NCBI GenBank assembly: GCA_033178465.1
Contig: GCA_033178465.1_4726.4
From: a phage
Length of the DNA: 37,920 nucleotides
Reading direction: 5' to 3' (one strand)
A program made the position numbers and the translations under genes. This document shows, one piece after another, positions 2,496-19,412 of this stretch. Numbering within the stretch: position 1 is the stretch's first letter; every line of letters starts with the position of its first letter. Below the pieces are notes generated by a model. The model did not search any database. It was not told the DNA's origin and was given only the letters and a program-made list of their open reading frames with translations.

Positions 2496-2512
2496 GTAAT
2501 ATAGCCGTGAAA
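2496..2512. promoter_or_regulatory. Conserved 17-mer GTAATATAGCCGTGAAA (copy 1), candidate phage promoter or operator
   Basis: Identical 17-mer recurs at 15029-15045; both copies lie in intergenic DNA upstream of a minus-strand operon start. Confidence 0.3.
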
Positions 2513-10058: not shown

Positions 10059-11147
10059 ATGAGCGATCTGGCAACAGACAATCGCACAAAAGGGAGTCAG
10101 CTAGCTCCAGACAACAACGTAAGCGTTTTCCGTATCTATGCCTTGGGTACTGTTGCTGCCGACTTTTCCAATAAAAGTCTGGAGGAAGATCCTAACCAGA
10201 CGCTGGAGGTCTTTCTTGATGAGATGATGTCAGGCGCTGATGGGAAAGTTGAAGCGGCGGGAAGCGTTAAAGAAGTCAGTGCAACAGACGCTCAAGGGAA
10301 CAGCTATACGGCGAAAGCGGCAACAACAACCAGCGTACAGTGTTACTGGTTACCTTTCGGCAGTAACCGGATGACGGCACCTAACTTGAGGAAAGGTCAG
10401 CGTGTGGTGGTCTGGCGTACCGCTGATGAAGAACAGCTCTACTGGCAGCCCAAAGGAGGGGATAGTGAGCTGATGACCATGGAATCGGTTATCCTCACCG
10501 TCAGCGCACGTCCTAGCGCTAAGAAGGACCGTAAATCGATTTCAACGGAAGACTGCTATTACCTAATGGTTGATACCTTCCTCAAGAAAGCGGTTATCGG
10601 CACCAGCGCACAGCTTGGTGAAGTTACCCAAGTCTACATGGAACTTAATCTGGACGAGGGTTACCTACAGGTTGCGGACAGCGTCCATCAAAATCTGCTG
10701 TTACTCCATTTCGTTGAACATATGCTGCGTTATCAAAACCAGGATGACAGCATCATCGACGTGACAAAAAAGAACATCACATTCCAGTGCGAGGATACGC
10801 TCAAAGCAATCGCTAAGAACGATATCCGAATGAAAGCAAAAAATATTTATACGGAATGTGAGAACTTCGAGCGTACTAGCAAAACAGAAAGCGTTACGAG
10901 TCAGAATGTTTCTTTGAAGTGTGATCGTTACACCGCGCAAGTATCAGGACAGACCACGTTTAAATGTCCGAATACGGTATTCACTGGAGCTGTAAGCTTC
11001 ACAGGTGAAGACGGAAACACGATGACGCTGAATGGGAACTTCATACACATCGCAGGCTCTTGGCGTTCACCAACCGGAACAAACGTATACACCCACGATC
11101 ACGGTGGTGTAGATCGTGGCAGCGGTCGTACAGACCCGTTCCAATAA
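10059..11147 (+). CDS. Putative baseplate central spike protein (gpV-like), tentative
   Basis: ATG at 10059 with AGGAG 8 nt upstream; C-terminus YTHDHGGVDRGSGRTDP resembles the His-rich apex of gpV/gp45-type spikes as I recall them; not verified. Confidence 0.35.
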   Translation: MSDLATDNRTKGSQLAPDNNVSVFRIYALGTVAADFSNKSLEEDPNQTLEVFLDEMMSGADGKVEAAGSVKEVSATDAQGNSYTAKAATTTSVQCYWLPFGSNRMTAPNLRKGQRVVVWRTADEEQLYWQPKGGDSELMTMESVILTVSARPSAKKDRKSISTEDCYYLMVDTFLKKAVIGTSAQLGEVTQVYMELNLDEGYLQVADSVHQNLLLLHFVEHMLRYQNQDDSIIDVTKKNITFQCEDTLKAIAKNDIRMKAKNIYTECENFERTSKTESVTSQNVSLKCDRYTAQVSGQTTFKCPNTVFTGAVSFTGEDGNTMTLNGNFIHIAGSWRSPTGTNVYTHDHGGVDRGSGRTDPFQ

Positions 11148-11166
11148 AAAAGAAATGCTATACAAC

Positions 11167-11200
11167 CTCCTTCCCTAGCCGTCAAGGCCGGGGAAGGAGG
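11167..11200. terminator. Conserved GGAGG-rich hairpin at convergent junction
   Basis: Stem CCTCCTTCCC / GGGAAGGAGG (10 bp), loop TAGCCGTCAAGGCC; between stop 11147 (plus) and stop 11216 (minus). Confidence 0.45.
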
Positions 11201-11215
11201 ATTATAGTTTATTTA

Positions 11216-11605
11216 TTAACGCGTTGCATTCTGGATGATTTCTTTTCCGATCTTAACCAAAGCGGGTATCTGTACAGCGGTTGCGCCTCGATGACGAAAC
11301 GCAGTCGTTAACGCGGTATCGATACTCACCGCACGTCCGTGAAGACGATCGAAATAGACTTGAGTGATTGCGGTAGCGTAATCCTTTCGCTGTTTCTTGG
11401 TTTGGCTCAACAGCGCCGCACTATGACTAACGATGAAGTAAGCGATTAAGAAGAACGCCGCTGACCGCGAACCAGGTAGAAAACCTTGTCGCTTAGGAAG
11501 CATCTCACAATCGCGAACACTATTATCGTTCGCCAGCTCTTCCATATCAACACAGCATAATTTTGCATAGGTGTGGAGATAGTGGGTAAAAGTTGAATTT
11601 AACAT
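11216..11605 (-). CDS. Hypothetical protein (129 aa from ATG 11605)
   Basis: Track ORF begins at GTG 11653; ATG at 11605 has GAGGAAAG upstream; hydrophobic central segment. Confidence 0.5.
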   Translation of the reverse strand: MLNSTFTHYLHTYAKLCCVDMEELANDNSVRDCEMLPKRQGFLPGSRSAAFFLIAYFIVSHSAALLSQTKKQRKDYATAITQVYFDRLHGRAVSIDTALTTAFRHRGATAVQIPALVKIGKEIIQNATR

Positions 11606-11711
11606 TTTTCTTTCCTCGATTACAATGAGTTCAATGTATAGCTTAAACGTCACAGAACGACGTATAACGGTTTGTTTTAATTTCTAATGGGTTTCCTTAT
11701 CTAAGATTGAA

Positions 11712-12074
11712 TTAAAGCGCTCTGAAGAGTTCTGTAGCGTTCTCGTCACGTAGACAGGCTTCGTTCAACAATTCAGCTAACAGCTTCGACCGAACTTCAA
11801 CAAATGTCCTGAGGCGATGCTCCCATTCTAAACGGATGGTGTAAGTATTATCCAGGTTTTTGTAATCAACGACAGATACCGAGCAGCGGGGTTCACGTTT
11901 GTTCACAGCACTCCAAACATCACGGATAACCGTCACGCCTTTCTTGGTGCATGTAAACGTTAAAATACAGCGGTTATTCGCAGCTTCTTCACGGACATGA
12001 CTAAATTCACTTCGTAACGATGAGACTTTGATCAGTCGGTCAATAGCTAACGATAAACCGATACGTTGTTGCAT
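11712..12074 (-). CDS. Hypothetical small protein (120 aa)
   Basis: ATG 12074 with AGAGGGGA 6 nt upstream; start lies 1 nt from the upstream stop. Confidence 0.55.
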   Translation of the reverse strand: MQQRIGLSLAIDRLIKVSSLRSEFSHVREEAANNRCILTFTCTKKGVTVIRDVWSAVNKREPRCSVSVVDYKNLDNTYTIRLEWEHRLRTFVEVRSKLLAELLNEACLRDENATELFRAL

Positions 12075-12075
12075 A

Positions 12076-12504
12076 TCAAATCCCCTCTTTCAGAATCTCA
12101 TCGAGGCTATTAGCAACCGCATCTAACTTCGTGCTGATTACTTTTGGTGTCAATCCGTATATTTTCCAAACTATCTGCGGTTGACGTATTCCATTTGTCT
12201 GACAATACATCTCGATCGACAACACCATATCGTCGGTGAACGTCGTGCTTTCGCAACAACGAAGATAGGCAGCCTCGAGCAACGTCTTTCCTAACGTGGT
12301 ACACACAAAAGTCAATCGAACGCAACGCATAGACAACGTGTTCGCATTCATTGATGCTGAGATCGGCTGAATGTGTTCACTCAGTTTTTCGTCTTCACGT
12401 AAAAGTGATAGGGTGCGATGTAAGCTGGTATGCTGAGCAACCAGCGAATGATAAAGACCAACGCGCGCTGCAGTTGCTGCTGATTCGGGCCATTTAATTT
12501 TCAT
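12076..12504 (-). CDS. Hypothetical small protein (142 aa)
   Basis: ATG 12504 with GAGGAA 6 nt upstream. Confidence 0.55.
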   Translation of the reverse strand: MKIKWPESAATAARVGLYHSLVAQHTSLHRTLSLLREDEKLSEHIQPISASMNANTLSMRCVRLTFVCTTLGKTLLEAAYLRCCESTTFTDDMVLSIEMYCQTNGIRQPQIVWKIYGLTPKVISTKLDAVANSLDEILKEGI

Positions 12505-12519
12505 GTTCGATTCCTCGTA

Positions 12520-12963
12520 TTAACACTGTGTTCCATTCGATAAGCGGGTGGTATCAAAACGATCCAGTTGGTGTACAATGCTATTAGCAACACGATGCAA
12601 ATAGTGTATTTTGTCCATTCGTGAAATCGCAGAAATCGTCCAGCAAGCCTCTGACGTCCAATAGGTGCCGTCTTCACTAAGGCTAACGTTATAAACTAAT
12701 TTCGTCATCACATTTCTCGCCTTATGCTCAGCAGACCAGAATATGTTTTCTAACACATCCTTCCCCGTTTGTGAAAACACGAACCCAAGCTTCACGTCGA
12801 AGTCGGATGCTTCAAGATTAACGAAGTGAAGATGATTCTCCAAAGGCGCAAAAGAGGCTAAACGTTCCAGCGCGTTTTGCAGCGTGGGATGATCGAGCTT
12901 TTCGAGATCATCTACAGGTTGTTCAGGTACAATCGCGATCGATTTACAGAATTTAATTTCCAT
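12520..12963 (-). CDS. Hypothetical small protein (147 aa)
   Basis: ATG 12963 with AAGAGGAA upstream. Confidence 0.55.
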   Translation of the reverse strand: MEIKFCKSIAIVPEQPVDDLEKLDHPTLQNALERLASFAPLENHLHFVNLEASDFDVKLGFVFSQTGKDVLENIFWSAEHKARNVMTKLVYNVSLSEDGTYWTSEACWTISAISRMDKIHYLHRVANSIVHQLDRFDTTRLSNGTQC

Positions 12964-12993
12964 GGTAGGTTCCTCTTGATAGATGGTAGTAAC

Positions 12994-13013
12994 GGGGATA
13001 CCGCGGTATCCCC
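12994..13013. promoter_or_regulatory. Perfect 20-bp palindrome GGGGATACCGCGGTATCCCC
   Basis: Exact palindrome about 30 nt upstream of the RBS of gene 12520-12963; a related palindrome occurs at 27492-27509. Confidence 0.35.
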
Positions 13014-13071
13014 TAAGTCTTTATAACACACCCCAAGCCATATTGGGTACAGGCTCGTTACGTTCGATGAA

Positions 13072-13473
13072 TCACATCAGTTGTTCTTTAAGTTGGGTTA
13101 ACTTATTTGCAACGATGTTCTCAACGTCGATCATCTTGTTCATGTTGTCGAGGGTATCCTGCCAGATGAAAATATCCACGGAACCGGTTCCGGCTAACGC
13201 GTTCTCAGGACGATGGTCGCGGGTCACGTAGCGTGGTCTCTGCGGGCAGGTTTGTAACTCGATCCAAAGCGCATCTAACGGACCGTGGTCCGTGACACCT
13301 AAGGCGAAGAATTCACCTCGTACGACCAGAACATCATCAGCCGTCCTGACACGGGTTGATCCTTCGTACACCAATTCCATCTTTGCTCGGCAGGACGGGT
13401 TCCCGTTCCACGCCTGGACGGCATCGGCAAGGGCTATTGACGTTGCGGTGGTGTTCGTTTGATCATGTTGCAT
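13072..13473 (-). CDS. Hypothetical small protein (133 aa)
   Basis: ATG 13473 with AGGAG 7 nt upstream. Confidence 0.55.
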   Translation of the reverse strand: MQHDQTNTTATSIALADAVQAWNGNPSCRAKMELVYEGSTRVRTADDVLVVRGEFFALGVTDHGPLDALWIELQTCPQRPRYVTRDHRPENALAGTGSVDIFIWQDTLDNMNKMIDVENIVANKLTQLKEQLM

Positions 13474-13550
13474 TCTAAGCTCCTGTAACGCTCTATAAGC
13501 GTCGTTTTAAGTTAAGGTATAGTTTCCCTTCTTTGGATTCGTTTATTGCG

Positions 13551-13826
13551 TTATACGGCTTTTCTGTGCGCGTAGAACGCCTTCGTTCCGTTGTTGATTG
13601 CTTCAACCACATCCGGGGTTAACACAACGGCGTTATCGCTTCGAGATGACGGTGCGTAATACCCTTCACCGTTCTCGGTAATCAGGCGATAACGGACTAA
13701 GCCTATGCTCGGTTCAACACGTAGCACCTTCTCAAGTTTGTATTTGATGATCTTCGTCAGGCTGACTGTGTCTGACGCGTAGATTGCTTTATAAACCTTG
13801 TTCTTTGCTGTCGGTTTCATCAACAT
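13551..13826 (-). CDS. Hypothetical small protein (91 aa)
   Basis: ORF with ATG 13826; weak RBS. Confidence 0.45.
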   Translation of the reverse strand: MLMKPTAKNKVYKAIYASDTVSLTKIIKYKLEKVLRVEPSIGLVRYRLITENGEGYYAPSSRSDNAVVLTPDVVEAINNGTKAFYAHRKAV

Positions 13827-13866
13827 GATTTCTGTTGTATTTTCCTTTTCGTTTGTTGGTGATGGA

Positions 13867-14166
13867 TTAAGGTTTAGGTTCCGTTTTGTGTTGTGCGAGT
13901 AGTGTGTTGATCTGCTCCCGTTGTTCTTTTAAGCATGCGGGAAGCTGGTCTTCCCGCACCGTTCCGATTTCCAACGTGATGTACCAACGTTGTTCGGAAG
14001 CCTGCCATTGAAAACTGCTCTGTAAACGTAGGATGTTAGGATCGTGTACCTTGCTTGCGCTGTAGCGGTTGAACCAATCCAGGTAAGCTGCTTTCCCCTC
14101 CTCATCGGCAACGTAACGCTGCACGCTGTTCTTCCCTTTGTTTTCGTATCCCGTTGCACGTATCAT
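13867..14166 (-). CDS. Hypothetical small protein (99 aa from ATG 14166)
   Basis: Track ORF 13867-14223 overlaps the upstream gene; the only in-frame ATG (14166) has AAGGAG upstream and removes the overlap. Confidence 0.5.
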   Translation of the reverse strand: MIRATGYENKGKNSVQRYVADEEGKAAYLDWFNRYSASKVHDPNILRLQSSFQWQASEQRWYITLEIGTVREDQLPACLKEQREQINTLLAQHKTEPKP

Positions 14167-14189
14167 GCGAATGTTTCTCCTTGGTTGTA

Positions 14190-14939
14190 TTAGGGATGGC
14201 GCAACATAGTCACATCCCAGCATACCAGCTTGCTTTTCTCAAGCATCTTCTGCGCGATATCGACGCTAACTCTAGGATGCATGACAGGTAGCCAACGTTC
14301 GTTAAGTACCTTCGCTTCCAGGCGTTGCTTGCGCTTATTGTAACGTACCTCGCTAACCCATGCGTAACCAAAAGGATGGATAACCCGTGGGTAGTAACGT
14401 TTAAGCATCATCAGTCTTTGCTGATAAAGTTTATCGGAACCCTCGCTAACGAATAAGGCAACCCGTTCCAACCGCTTGGTGTAATACGTTCCGGTGGTAT
14501 GATTGATCCAACCAGGAAGTGCGCGTACGTCATTTTCGAGTGTTCCTGATACGTTGTGCACTTCACCGCTATACACCGTCCCAACAACCTGATTCGCTGC
14601 GCCCACCATCGACCGTGGCAAAGCATCCGCGGTAGGATACAACCATGCGTCCCCAAGCTGCTCTCCCGACGCAAGTACGCGTAGTCCGCTTGCGCTCATC
14701 CGTTGCGGATGCTGGCTCTTATGCGCACGCAACTGCACCACAGATAAGTCCGCTGGATAGGCGACGCAACAACCTCGCTGACGGAACAGTCCAACCTCAC
14801 CATCCATCCCTTCGATCATGCTTCCTTCCGAACCGTTCCACCAACGCTTAACCTTCACGCATTCCGCTTGCACAGCCTCAGGCAACGTTAGATAATCGTG
14901 CTCGATAAACACCACATCAAAAATTAATTCATTGTTCAT
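14190..14939 (-). CDS. Hypothetical protein (249 aa), first gene of the small-gene cassette
   Basis: ATG 14939 with AGAGGA upstream; immediately downstream of the AT-rich regulatory region. Confidence 0.55.
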   Translation of the reverse strand: MNNELIFDVVFIEHDYLTLPEAVQAECVKVKRWWNGSEGSMIEGMDGEVGLFRQRGCCVAYPADLSVVQLRAHKSQHPQRMSASGLRVLASGEQLGDAWLYPTADALPRSMVGAANQVVGTVYSGEVHNVSGTLENDVRALPGWINHTTGTYYTKRLERVALFVSEGSDKLYQQRLMMLKRYYPRVIHPFGYAWVSEVRYNKRKQRLEAKVLNERWLPVMHPRVSVDIAQKMLEKSKLVCWDVTMLRHP

Positions 14940-15190
14940 TTAAAAAGATCCTCTGTTTCACGTTAATTAAACAACGTATTGATTTCTATTCGACAACAAT
15001 ACGAACATTGTCCGTATGCATCATAGAGGTAATATAGCCGTGAAAGGATTTGTGTTACAGAAAGGGTTTTGTTGTGTTTTAAGAAGGGATGGATTTAGAA
15101 GAGGTGTTTCAAGGAAGGTAAACGAGGATGGTTATTTTAATTTAAGTAAGTAAGATGTTATCTGTATTTGTTAAAAGTGTATTGTCCATG

Positions 15191-15254
15191 TTATCTTGTT
15201 TATCTTAGGTTTAATCGTTTTATCTTTGTATGTTTAAGTTGTTTTATTTATCTT
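15191..15254. repeat. Iteron-like TTATCTT heptamer repeats (4 copies)
   Basis: TTATCTT at 15191, 15200, 15220 and 15248. Confidence 0.4.
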
Positions 15255-15738
15255 GTTTGTATATTTAAATTAAATCAATAAGCGTATCTTCAAAACAATG
15301 GATAACATGTGTTTACTACCTTAATGGTAACACATGTCATCTGTGCATTACACTCCGTTATCACTTCGTTACATGCTTATATGTTGGATAACTCAAAAAA
15401 CCATTTGTGATACTCTTCTTCACGTTGTTCATCAGAGTATCTCGTCTATACTCATTGCATTCGTATACGACATAACCGTTATACGCTAACGCTACGCTTA
15501 TAGCTTGATAACTCTAAGGATAAAAACATAAACTCGCTTCGCTCGTTTAGTTTTTCTTTTTCTTAGAGTTATCCTGTTGCTCGTCTCTAAAGGACTTCGC
15601 TCCTCCCCCGTCCCCCGAAGGGGCCGAGGTCGTGGAAATTTTACTTTCCAAATACATTTACAACATCTGTAAACTTTTACTCCAGGTACTTAATCTTATC
15701 ATTAGAAATTATAAAGAGAAGAATAAACACAAACATAA

Positions 15739-15763
15739 ACCTTCCCCCGACCCAACAGGGAAG
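15739..15763 (-). terminator. Intrinsic terminator candidate after gene 15783-16676
   Basis: Stem CCTTCCC / GGGAAGG with 11-nt loop; on the minus strand it is followed by a T-rich tract (complement of 15721-15738). Confidence 0.45.
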
Positions 15764-15782
15764 GAGGAAGGGAGAGATTAAA

Positions 15783-16676
15783 TTATTCGGAAACGTTGTA
15801 ACCGAATACGGCTTTACCGTAGGTGTGGGTACCGTCAGCTAACGACACCACTAGCACATGGTTGTATGTGGCGTTAACACCCTTGTCGGTAGACTCGGTG
15901 GTAGCACCGTTATAGACAAAGGTAGCTGTTTGCAGATTGGCTTTCAGCTCGGTGATGATCTCCTCACTTACACCCGTCTGCTCTTTGATCAGCGTAGTCA
16001 GGTTACCTGCCAGGGTATCATCGATCTTGGTTTCATTACTGGTAATCGCCTGTAAGCCTACAGTGTAGGTGCTGAAGTCTAACGGATAGGTTAACAGACG
16101 TGCTGACGTTTTGGTACCATCGCCTTCATCAACGTAGGTTAAGTTACCCAGGTTGGTAACCTTGATGATGTTAGCCAGATCCAGCGTGGTGTTATAAACT
16201 TTAACTTGAACAGAACCATACCACGCCAACGAATCTTCTTTGGCTTCCAGGGTGATCGTCTGGATACCATGATCGTCGAAGGTAACAGGATTAGCTAACG
16301 TATCGGCTTTGATGTCTTTCGCTTTATCCAGGAACTTCTCACCGGAAGGCGTGATCATACCGTAGCGTTGAGCTACAAGGTCAACCACATCACCGATGGT
16401 GGTGTTCGCTTCAACGTTAACACGTACAGCGATCTTCTGGAACCACTTAGCCAGATCCAGACGATGGTAGGTAACATCGCGTTCATTGAAGTAAGGGGTA
16501 CCTTCACCAGGGCTAAGCGTTAAAGTTGCTTCTGGAGCAGAAGCGCTTTTGGATTTAAGAACGTATTTAAGATCACTGTATTGGAAGCTGGCACCAGTGT
16601 CGGCGTTGAGCTGGTTGATCTCATCAACGATAAGTTGCCAAGGTGTTTTTAAAGTAAGTGAAACTTGAGTTGCCAT
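15783..16676 (-). CDS. Paralog-family protein (297 aa), probable virion structural protein
   Basis: ATG 16676 with GAGGT upstream; shares the motifs TYHRLDL, LVAQRYGM and SLAWYGSVQV with the tandem paralogs at 28896-32515 and with the 180-aa protein; moderately optimised codon usage. Confidence 0.65.
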   Translation of the reverse strand: MATQVSLTLKTPWQLIVDEINQLNADTGASFQYSDLKYVLKSKSASAPEATLTLSPGEGTPYFNERDVTYHRLDLAKWFQKIAVRVNVEANTTIGDVVDLVAQRYGMITPSGEKFLDKAKDIKADTLANPVTFDDHGIQTITLEAKEDSLAWYGSVQVKVYNTTLDLANIIKVTNLGNLTYVDEGDGTKTSARLLTYPLDFSTYTVGLQAITSNETKIDDTLAGNLTTLIKEQTGVSEEIITELKANLQTATFVYNGATTESTDKGVNATYNHVLVVSLADGTHTYGKAVFGYNVSE

Positions 16677-18302: not shown

Positions 18303-19412
18303 ATGGAGTTACGTGTTTGTAAATGTTGCGGAGTGGAGAAATCTATTATTGAGTTCAAACCTACCACATCCGGGTATTACACAAGAACGTGTAAAAAGTG
18401 TTTGGTGGCATACAAGAAACAATGGAGGAAACTCAACCCAGATAAAGAACGTGCACAAATCAAACGTTATATGGAGAAATGTAAAAACAGAACAGGAGAT
18501 GTTAAGCTGGCTTACATCAGATCGTTGCAACCGGCGCTGCGTGTTAAGGCAAAAATAGACTACCCTGAAAATATTCTTCTCTTACATTGCTTTAAATGCG
18601 ATGGAGTTAAGCCGGTGGATAGTTTTGCTTTGGCTGCTGCTAGACCAACCGGTAGGTCGAATATTTGTCGAGCATGTTTGCAACAACACACCCACAACAG
18701 GAAATATCTCCCTACGGAACAGTTTTATCGGTGCCAACGTTGTGGTAAAACGAAACCAGCCGATCAATTTAGAGATCGATCCTCTGTGATTCGTGGAAAA
18801 CATTCTTACTGTTTAGATTGTGAAAAAGACGTTAAAGAAGAATTGTTGCGACGCAGAACTCCTGAATATCAGATTGAGAAACTAAAAGAGAAAAGTGTAT
18901 TGCTTGCGTGTAAACATGGACTGGATCCGGATAAGCTCTGGAAGAAATGCTCGAGTTGCGGCGAGATAAAACGACCATCCGATTTTTCTCGCAATTGCCG
19001 TGCAATAGATGGATACCAGTCTATTTGTAAACACTGTCGCTCGGCCAGTAGCGAAACATTCGCTGGATTCAGGAGACGTATCCATGCCGCCGTCGGTCAT
19101 GCGACGACCGTTGGTAAACTAACACGTCCTGATACATGCGAAGAGTGTGGCTGTAACGCATACACTGAGGCACACCATGACAACTATCTTAAACCTTTCG
19201 ATGTTCGCTGGTTATGCCGTAGCTGCCATCGTAAAGTCCATTTGAATTACGTATTTGTTGAAATACGTTATTTCAAGGAAAAAGGTTTAACGGTTGAAGA
19301 AGTTGTGCGTCGAGCTTACCCTGACGCTTTTGATTGGGTGGTGGTTAACCCGGAAGATAAGAATGCGCTAGTTATCGTCCGAGTACCACCACAGTTACGA
19401 GAGTTAGATTAA
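18303..19412 (+). CDS. HNH endonuclease with four N-terminal zinc-ribbon-like repeats (homing-endonuclease-like)
   Basis: C-terminal CEECG...HHDNY...WLCRSCHRKVH HNH motif; four repeats of C-x2-C-G-x2-K-x4-F...C-x2-C; visibly AT-richer than neighbours; opposite orientation to both flanking genes; start only 11 bp from the endolysin start. Confidence 0.7.
   Translation: MELRVCKCCGVEKSIIEFKPTTSGYYTRTCKKCLVAYKKQWRKLNPDKERAQIKRYMEKCKNRTGDVKLAYIRSLQPALRVKAKIDYPENILLLHCFKCDGVKPVDSFALAAARPTGRSNICRACLQQHTHNRKYLPTEQFYRCQRCGKTKPADQFRDRSSVIRGKHSYCLDCEKDVKEELLRRRTPEYQIEKLKEKSVLLACKHGLDPDKLWKKCSSCGEIKRPSDFSRNCRAIDGYQSICKHCRSASSETFAGFRRRIHAAVGHATTVGKLTRPDTCEECGCNAYTEAHHDNYLKPFDVRWLCRSCHRKVHLNYVFVEIRYFKEKGLTVEEVVRRAYPDAFDWVVVNPEDKNALVIVRVPPQLRELD

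Follow-up and report, generated by a model that had tools for sequence, protein, structure and literature searches.

Found at positions 11216-14939 of a stretch of phage DNA, contig GCA_033178465.1_4726.4, is a cassette of eight small genes, all on the minus strand, which is described here as an early accessory operon of a jumbo phage. That stretch in its entirety, 37,920 nucleotides (nt), is referred to as 'the window', and gene coordinates are window positions. Positions 11000-15800 of the window share 90.6% DNA identity with positions 11011-15814 of Escherichia phage vB_EcoM_Goslar (here, 'Goslar'), which was the sole match among 50,697 phage records. Goslar is a 237-kilobase (kb) jumbo phage, and one that is nucleus-forming (Chimalliviridae), with the source phage of the window being a Goslar-like relative. 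The eight window genes indeed pair one-to-one with Goslar gp021, gp020, gp019, gp018, gp017, gp016, gp015, and gp014, and they are flanked by a baseplate gene (the gp013 homolog) and a DUF7941 virion gene (the gp022 homolog). Position between these two flanking genes, the eight families, gene order, type of promoter, and terminator all are the same in Goslar as in the window.

These genes are already present in databases, that is, as Goslar HOV27_gp014 to gp021, with all eight annotated as 'hypothetical protein', and early operons consisting of ORFans are a known kind of thing among phiKZ-like phages. No paper characterizing Goslar gp014-gp021 was found in the literature, and the cassette DNA had no match among complete E. 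coli genomes and plasmids. What is added here is an assignment of the promoter, a description of the slot which the genes occupy along with its eight protein families, recognition of two paralog families, and recognition of a mosaicism among alleles.

Numbered from the promoter, gene 1 (14190-14939, minus) encodes 249 amino acids (aa) and is the homolog of Goslar gp021 (family F00, with family designations coming from a clustering of the cassette proteins of 10 Goslar-like genomes, window and Goslar included). Next are gene 2 (13867-14166; 99 aa; gp020 homolog; F03), the product of which is 97% identical in aa to that of Goslar, gene 3 (13551-13826; 91 aa; gp019 homolog; F04), which specifies a basic protein (isoelectric point, 9.7) that is 98.9% identical to the Goslar protein, and gene 4 (13072-13473; 133 aa; gp018 homolog; F05). 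Gene 5 (12520-12963; 147 aa; gp017 homolog) and gene 6 (12076-12504; 142 aa; gp016 homolog) are paralogs, both belonging to F01, and gene 7 (11712-12074; 120 aa; gp015 homolog; F02) is a more distant paralog of these two. The cassette ends with gene 8 (11216-11605; 129 aa; gp014 homolog; F06), which is 100% identical in aa to its Goslar counterpart.

All eight of the minus-strand open reading frames (ORFs) listed by the initial annotation are confirmed, with two likely adjustments of starts. Gene 2 was first listed as 13867-14223 (118 aa), and its start most likely is not 14223 but instead the ATG at 14166, which has AAGGAG 8 nt upstream. Gene 8 was first listed as 11216-11653 (145 aa), starting with GTG, and here too the start most likely is found further downstream, i.e., at the ATG at 11605 rather than at the GTG at 11653, with GAGGAA preceding that ATG. 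The corrected lengths of both fit the Goslar annotation as well as the gene calls of relatives, with some relatives possessing a 96-aa gene 2. Upon correction, the gaps between genes, going from gene 1 to gene 8, are 23, 40, 77, 108, 15, 1, and 106 nt. A description of these junctions as 'mostly tight or coupled' therefore stands for four of the seven (23, 40, 15, and 1 nt), including the one where the stop of gene 6 and the start of gene 7 are coupled as TGAtATG, and does not stand for those of 77, 108, and 106 nt. At the first junction the TAA ending gene 1 (14190-14192) is replaced by a glutamine codon in longer alleles (258-263 aa; Goslar, 260 aa), giving 9 extra residues (QH.TGETFA) which run across the gene 2 ribosome-binding site and overlap the gene 2 start (14164-14192). 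This sense/stop polymorphism involves loss of a tail only, and genes 1 and 2 are uncoupled.

As measured against Goslar, the ratio of nonsynonymous to synonymous divergence (dN/dS) is 0.00-0.45 for all eight genes. In Goslar, furthermore, all eight are transcribed, with peptides of gp016, gp017, and gp018 detected by mass spectrometry. Because they have Goslar orthologs with these ratios, with this transcription, and, for three, with peptides, the eight ORFs can be viewed as real genes under purifying selection rather than as chance ORFs.

Information on the timing of expression of the cassette is from Goslar rather than from the window phage, based on a comparison of knockdown of ChmA, the nuclear-shell protein, with a control at 30 minutes (bioRxiv 10.1101/2023.09.20.558163 supplementary table). 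The ChmA-knockdown transcriptome represents the 5-20 minute program of the injected virion RNA polymerase within the early infection vesicle (bioRxiv 10.1101/2023.09.20.558163). For Goslar gp014-gp021 the log2 of knockdown over control is +0.8 to +1.4. In the genes immediately to either side (gp012-013 and gp022-023) it is -3.5 to -6.6, and over wider flanks (gp005-013 and gp022-036) it is -2.8 to -7.6. Read density upon knockdown is 0.6-1.5 reads/nt over the eight genes, and is even, displaying only a gentle 5'-to-3' fall (1.1 to 0.6), versus 0.005-0.03 reads/nt in the adjacent genes. The Goslar orthologs of the cassette, that is, are transcribed with the phage nucleus blocked, a condition under which transcription of both flanks drops ~100-fold.

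Found 5' of gene 1 is a non-coding stretch of 843 nt, and it is in the proximal part of this stretch that a match to a virion-RNA-polymerase type of early promoter is found. It consists of an exact 17-mer, TTTCACGGCTATATTAC (15029-15045, minus), with 89 nt separating it from the downstream ATG of gene 1. Chimallivirus early-promoter consensuses include TATATTAC for phage phiKZ and TTTRARR_BTATATTAC for phage 201phi2-1 (PMC7058600). The core of the window promoter, TATATTAC, is the same as the published phiKZ early motif, and its extended form agrees with the consensus of phages 201phi2-1, OBP, and N1M2 (PMC7058600), with TTT..TA[T/C]ATTAC present upstream of the cassette and on its coding strand. 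The equivalent core in Goslar is TACATTAC. Just two copies of the 17-mer exist in the whole of the window, and each heads an early island. The second copy, at 2496-2512 (minus), precedes the gp004 homolog (ATG at 2464) by 31 nt and heads an island running from the gp004 to the gp001 homologs, the Goslar counterpart of which also is resistant to ChmA knockdown.

A pattern generalized from the window and Goslar sites, TTTSNCGNYTAYATTAC, has four matches in Goslar 1-50 kb, versus 0.06 expected, and these are upstream of gp004, gp021, and gp040 as well as at the 5' end of gp047. The same four are the exact 5' ends of knockdown-resistant blocks, i.e., gp001-004, gp014-021, gp037-040, and gp044-047. 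As the pattern was built from 1-50 kb sites, Goslar 50-100 kb was used as a hold-out. There the sole exact match is between gp075 and gp076, upstream of gp075, and the sole knockdown-resistant block is gp070-gp075, such that over Goslar 1-100 kb the pattern is found at the 5' end of all five early islands. Every relative's cassette locus likewise has one match, 90-150 nt before the first cassette gene, with the only second match in these loci being the gp004 promoter, as present in two longer, Goslar-type loci. No second early-promoter match was found within the cassette, and scans for sigma-70 promoters and terminators gave only background levels.

The gp070-gp075 block (Goslar 83289-86622) is worth a separate description. 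It consists of six small minus-strand genes (~141-200 aa), knockdown resistant and with the same early-promoter pattern upstream, and can be described as a sister early small-gene cassette, though one that is found outside of the window. Its gp071 is present at trace level in virions, as too is gp018.

At the other end of the cassette, following gene 8 at 11143-11200 (minus), is a GC-rich hairpin, CCTCCTTCCC...GGGAAGGAGG, plus T-run, a terminator that is shared with the convergent baseplate gene and for which the equivalent Goslar site is an annotated terminator. A single promoter, contiguous genes on the same strand, and an end terminator are all present, that is, with the transcript itself inferred from this anatomy along with Goslar read density. 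The initial annotation's characterization of the cassette as 'operon-like' and as 'early' is borne out by the one early-promoter match, by the absence of another within the cassette, by the terminator after gene 8, and by the knockdown-resistant transcription of Goslar. Expression solely late, named there as a result which would count against that characterization, is not what is seen in Goslar, where transcription of these genes is nucleus-independent. We have good confidence, overall, in the cassette being an early accessory operon that is driven by the virion polymerase.

Additional features are found between and around these signals. Within the leader, at 14951-14987 (minus), is a conserved 37-nt block, GAATAGAAATCAATACGTTGTTTAATTAACGTG, with 94% mean pairwise identity among 9 genomes, outside of which the leader varies by indels of up to ~40 nt. 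The block, which may be a translational or stability element, has a short ACGTT...AACGT inverted repeat. Upstream of the promoter, at 15050-15385 (minus), is an AT-rich spacer that is highly variable, indeed the least conserved part of the region (mean pairwise identity of 0.32-0.68 with many indels, 9 genomes). An AT-rich region upstream of the cassette, as had been noted previously, is real, i.e., with GC of 0.32 at 15001-15500. The spacer has AAGATAA repeats that are all of the same orientation; four of the window's 11 copies are found within 60 nt (15150-15260, minus), and repeat number differs between relatives. These repeats could be sites of protein binding or instead could simply be slippage-prone sequence. 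Lastly, within the 108 nt separating gene 4 from gene 5, at 12994-13013 (minus), is a perfect, GC-rich hairpin, GGGGATACC-GC-GGTATCCCC, with no T-run, for which an exact copy exists in only one relative locus. As Goslar read density does not drop across the gene 4/5 junction, this hairpin is not a strong terminator.

The cassette occupies what may be described as a slot. Among the 10 genomes clustered, the two anchors are present in all, save where a contig is too short to reach the baseplate gene. Between these anchors are 7-11 genes from eight families, including one to four copies of F00 and one or two of F01. Conservation across all 10 genomes extends to the promoter, the leader block, and the order in which shared members occur. 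With its fixed flanks enclosing differing gene content and differing alleles, the slot has the properties of a variable accessory-gene hotspot.

Alleles vary as follows. Six of the eight window proteins are 94-100% identical to those of Goslar, versus gene 1 (44.7% identity to gp021) and gene 6 (55.3% identity to gp016), which represent different allele classes, each with a synonymous divergence (dS) of ~1.4. The neighbors of genes 1 and 6, when likewise compared with Goslar, have a dS of 0.02-0.18. The window gene 1 is instead 94% identical to an allele found in contigs from Salmonella assemblies (94%, too, in another genome, L017), and gene 6 is 95-96% identical to an allele found in three other genomes (96% in L017). 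As the same gene 1 and gene 6 alleles occur in L017, these differences from Goslar are a matter of allele replacement rather than of fast local evolution. More generally, the genomes in which a gene is nearly identical and those in which it is deeply divergent differ, among the ten, from gene to gene. In this comparison gene 1, for example, is 94% identical in L017 and 42% in Goslar, and gene 5 is 100% identical in one genome (L010) and 45% in another (L006). The most conserved members are gene 8 (85-100% identity) and gene 2 (81-97%). There is as well a database allele of gene 1, P0008, in which one class supplies the sequence from the N-terminus through the middle and the window class supplies the last ~50 residues. 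The slot would appear, on this comparison of sequences, to consist of old functional alleles and paralogs that have been shuffled by recombination.

Of the protein families, F00, i.e., that of gene 1, has members of 249-297 aa, present here as one copy and in relatives as up to four tandem copies. Alignment reveals a conserved N-terminus and conserved C-terminal ~110 residues, with the middle (~residues 30-140) variable, and the invariant residues are W144, H188-P189, G191, W216, and W241-D242. No known catalytic motif was recognized in this family. A 2H-phosphoesterase interpretation of gene 1, based on 'AHKSQ' and 'NHT[T/V]G', was rejected, since the second histidine varies (two alleles have NQT) and since H-x-T/S is not matched by the motif spacing. 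An AlphaFold2 model of gene 1, based on 17 sequences, was poor (mean predicted local distance difference test, pLDDT, of 48; predicted template modeling score, pTM, of 0.38) and was left out of fold searches. Regarding F05, a version of 156 aa, ~30% identical to gene 4, is found in relatives, and F07, of 145 aa, has no member in the window.

The second paralog family emerges from profile comparisons. F01 matches F02 with an hhalign probability of 87.7% (E 3.4e-6, 85 columns), with reciprocal cross-hits between hidden Markov models (HMMs) of E 1e-4 to 1e-3, and genes 5, 6, and 7 therefore are three tandem paralogs. Modeled along with its paralogs using AlphaFold2, gene 5 gives a pLDDT of 83.9 and a pTM of 0.80, with a predicted fold of two N-terminal helices followed by a beta-beta-alpha-beta-beta-alpha sandwich. 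The best matches of this model among predicted viral structures are mostly uncharacterized chimallivirus proteins of 130-170 aa (E 7e-6 to 1e-3; template modeling score, TM, 0.4-0.53), as from PhiPA3, 201phi2-1, PA7, and several Erwinia phages, which weakly suggests a fold family that may be common to chimalliviruses. Against PDB entries up to April 2026, a Foldseek search with gene 5 returned nothing at E<=0.001. Also considered for genes 5-7, as a possibility only, was a dimerization fold of the RNA polymerase alpha / Rpb3 / Rpb11 type. Gene 8 has a hydrophobic segment of 19 residues (residues 48-66; Kyte-Doolittle mean, 1.85), possibly a single membrane-spanning helix.

That the eight proteins have 'no recognisable motifs', as previously claimed, has held up, since none has a significant match in Pfam, PHROGs, NCBIfam, or PADLOC. 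Sub-threshold matches to RseA_C, DUF2509, baseplate wedge phrog_43 (E 0.0024), and 4-oxalocrotonate tautomerase were dismissed as chance. The same is so for those from PADLOC, i.e., Csx1 (E 0.0044 over 35 residues) and REase_II (E 0.012), which are at chance level, and the proteins do not belong to its defense models. For the two main families only (gene 1; genes 5-7), PDB sequence profiles built from three alignments gave nothing better than E 0.44. No significant similarity to known anti-defense or host-takeover families was seen, whether for all eight proteins (Pfam, PHROGs, and NCBIfam) or for the two main families (PDB profiles).

Homologs of the eight proteins are restricted in their distribution. 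Searching the same 50,697 phage records by tblastn, using all eight concatenated, yielded only Goslar. Searching 5.8 billion proteins with gene 1 yielded 18 clusters, 17 of 249-263 aa and one a 170-aa fragment, with the sources being contigs (up to ~250 kb) of Salmonella and E. coli assemblies and of metagenomes. An exhaustive HMM search with the gene 1 family, against 1.84 billion representative proteins, found only six, all of a size seen with cassette members of Goslar-like phages. By these searches the cassette is not part of the Chimalliviridae core genome. Nor were further copies of its eight families found in the rest of the window or of Goslar 1-100 kb.

Mass spectrometry of Goslar virions failed to detect five of the eight proteins, with the remainder estimated at <1 copy (gp016), ~2.5-6 copies (gp018), and ~12-29 copies (gp017). 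As transcribed early and as mostly undetected in virions, the eight do not constitute virion structural proteins. Clear structural homologs, the other finding which by the initial annotation would have argued against its proposal, were not seen, with the proteins either undetected in Goslar virions or mostly present at trace levels.

From these observations a sequence of events may be proposed. The virion-carried RNA polymerase would start at the 15029-15045 promoter right after DNA injection, transcribing all eight genes as one ~3.9 kb message and stopping at the hairpin terminator at ~11143-11200. That message would then be translated in the host cytoplasm before a phage nucleus exists. Its products are lineage-restricted accessory proteins, i.e., neither core replication proteins nor virion proteins, the genes for which related phages gain, lose, duplicate, and swap by recombination within a fixed, plastic slot that is bounded by the gp022 and gp013 homologs. 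Dominating the slot are the gp021-like family along with the small alpha/beta family of gp015/016/017. The proteins, we propose, would bind host components early, and by doing so would neutralize cytoplasmic defenses, that is, RNA- or protein-sensing ones, or would take over host functions, with different alleles and different copy numbers suiting different E. coli or Salmonella hosts.

An early accessory operon occupying a plastic slot, with a host-directed role, is the best explanation for the cassette and one that we consider to be reasonably probable. The host-directed function is something that we infer, as also is its mode of action, with an anti-defense or host-takeover role plausible. 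A host-directed role is favored because the proteins would be made first and would act outside of protective compartments, because they are dispensable at the level of the family, and because presence, copy number, and allele vary among phages that otherwise are nearly identical. It is favored as well because early cytoplasmic proteins meet host immunity, as exemplified by Avs5 and JADA (PMC12931631). JADA (Pa36 gp316 / phiKZ gp124) is early, chimallivirus-specific, of novel fold, sensed by Avs5, and reported to be essential (PMC12931631). It resembles the cassette proteins in being expressed early, and shows that early cytoplasmic proteins are the exposed surface of these phages. The cassette proteins differ from JADA, however, in being restricted to Goslar-like phages and variably present rather than chimallivirus-specific and essential, and no similarity was detected in the above Foldseek search with gene 5.

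Two kinds of known systems provide further comparison. The early operons of phiKZ-like phages, like the window cassette, have an AT-rich promoter of the TATATTAC type with a TTT-rich upstream half, are transcribed by the virion RNA polymerase, and consist of same-strand clusters of small, lineage-specific genes with nucleus-independent expression, which for the cassette is known via Goslar. Several phiKZ early ORFans inhibit host functions. The eight proteins nevertheless lack sequence homology to those of phiKZ, PhiPA3, 201phi2-1, and Erwinia phages, with a weak likeness of fold for gene 5 only. The accessory or anti-defense hotspots of other phages resemble the slot in having fixed anchors, swappable genes, tandem paralogs, and gene-by-gene mosaicism. 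T-even and T7-like phages, for example, possess hotspots in which conserved flanks enclose swappable early genes. Where the window differs is in occupants, since none such as Ocr, Arn, or Acr-like proteins are present there by sequence (Pfam and PHROGs).

A number of points weigh against a host-directed role. Most Goslar genes, 146-175 of 249 (~58-70%; bioRxiv 10.1101/2023.09.20.558163), are early ones, and early timing alone therefore says little about function. The expression evidence, in addition, is that of Goslar and not of the window phage. The proteins do not, so far as sequence comparison can indicate, resemble characterized anti-defense, host-takeover, or defense proteins. Pervasive positive selection was not found in gene 1, for which within-class dN/dS is 0.14-0.23 (0.23-0.32 for the middle region), and within a class gene 1 is under ordinary purifying selection, without sign of rapid positive selection. 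Divergence between allele classes is old, with dS saturated, and has been spread by recombination. Finally, given gp017's ~12-29 estimated copies per virion, some members could be packaged.

This last point can be elaborated upon as an explanation in its own right, one that we consider unlikely, which is that certain of the proteins, that of gene 5 (the gp017 homolog) in particular, belong to the virion at low copy number, being packaged and then injected along with the DNA. Goslar gp017 is found beside a recognized minor structural protein, gp030, in the list of virion protein abundances, and gp018 is present as well. Yet gp016, at less than one copy, is at the level of the non-virion RNA polymerase subunit that is listed beside it, five of the eight went undetected, transcription is early and nucleus-independent, unlike that of all structural genes, and early proteins which persist can co-purify with virions. 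Somewhat less improbable, though still doubtful, is that the proteins function in early processes of the phage itself, that is, in those of the infection vesicle, mRNA export, or phage-nucleus assembly or import. The cassette belongs to the same early class as chmA, picA, and chmC, its most conserved members are genes 8 and 2, gene 8 may encode a membrane-spanning segment and it is in a lipid vesicle that early infection occurs, and gene 5 has its weak fold matches to small proteins of PhiPA3, 201phi2-1, and Erwinia phages. Conservation across the family would be expected of such functions, however, and sequence homologs of the eight are confined to Goslar-like phages, with close relatives varying from 7 to 11 genes and with whole families present or absent.

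Old, discrete allele classes that are under purifying selection and exchanged by recombination also fit with systems of recognition or incompatibility, and the cassette might then be a phage-phage module, involved in superinfection exclusion or in competition among jumbo phages, with allele classes as incompatibility groups. A possible early membrane protein, as gene 8 could be, is typical of exclusion functions. This membrane candidate, however, is the least variable member of the cassette, no similarity to known exclusion proteins was seen (Pfam and PHROGs), and there is no experimental hint of such a role, such that we consider this idea to be as unlikely as that of packaging. Still further from probable is that the island is largely neutral junk, i.e., fast-turnover ORFans with no selected function, as one might suppose from the lack of homologs outside of the lineage and from variable presence. 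Set against this are the dN/dS values of 0.00-0.45 in all eight genes, the products of genes 8 and 3 being 100% and 98.9% identical to those of Goslar despite synonymous change, and the conservation of promoter, leader block, and shared gene order in all 10 genomes. It is because of this purifying selection along with these conserved regulatory signals that neutral junk is an unlikely interpretation.

Two neighbors of the cassette deserve description. Between the gp022 homolog and the AT-rich spacer, at 15395-15704 and probably on the minus strand, is an almost invariant non-coding element of ~310 nt, which may be the more unusual object in the neighborhood. Among nine Goslar-like genomes compared, this element has 98.4-99.7% identity where neighboring genes have 84-94% and third codon positions 74-90%, and in the most distant genome it has 94.8% versus 80-85% for its neighbors. 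Strong folding is predicted for both strands (z = -4.9, minus; z = -4.6, plus), and features include a CCCC-UUCG-GGGG hairpin, a 12-base-pair long-range stem (GATAACTCTAAG/CTTAGAGTTATC), and a terminal hairpin plus T6. In the divergent genome, pairing on the minus strand survives most of the substitutions located within predicted stems, by way of G-U. Rfam contains no match to the element, the Goslar record leaves it unannotated, and neither the window nor Goslar 1-50 kb has another copy of it; Rfam and tRNA scans of the window and the upstream region likewise returned nothing. It could be a new phage RNA, possibly derived from the 3' untranslated region of a late gp022 transcript, or could be a DNA site.

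Further away, at 18303-19412 (plus), an ORF of 369 aa is inserted between the endolysin gene and the gp025 homolog. Neither Goslar nor any relative's locus spanning that junction possesses it. With its matches to an Stc1 zinc-finger domain (Pfam E 1.3e-7) and to phage endonuclease, endonuclease VII, and HNH families (PHROGs E 3e-35 to 1e-14), it most likely is a mobile homing-endonuclease gene.

Returning to the cassette as an early accessory operon with a host-directed role, a bolder version may be entertained, one that we view as speculative and probably incorrect as a whole. In that version the slot would be a dedicated counter-defense arsenal, acting against cytoplasmic immunity which detects the RNA or proteins of the phage that are early. 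In that role the gp021-like family would be a new and modular inhibitor, its conserved ends a scaffold and its middle a swappable, target-binding region, present in one to four copies; gp015/016/017 would be a second new inhibitor fold, shared structurally with small proteins of other chimalliviruses; and the 310-nt element would be a new phage RNA that is linked to the locus. Such an arsenal, if real, would target the only immunity that is able to reach nucleus-forming phages.

The DNA of nucleus-forming jumbo phages is shielded from defenses, such that it falls to early cytoplasmic proteins and RNAs to contend with the host, and a role is known for few of these. An anonymous run of ORFs has become, in the present case, a defined and testable unit, that is, a short, ranked list of candidates, and RNA-targeting knockdown tools exist for Goslar. 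The early-promoter pattern, having predicted every early island examined, is usable as well for Goslar-like phages.

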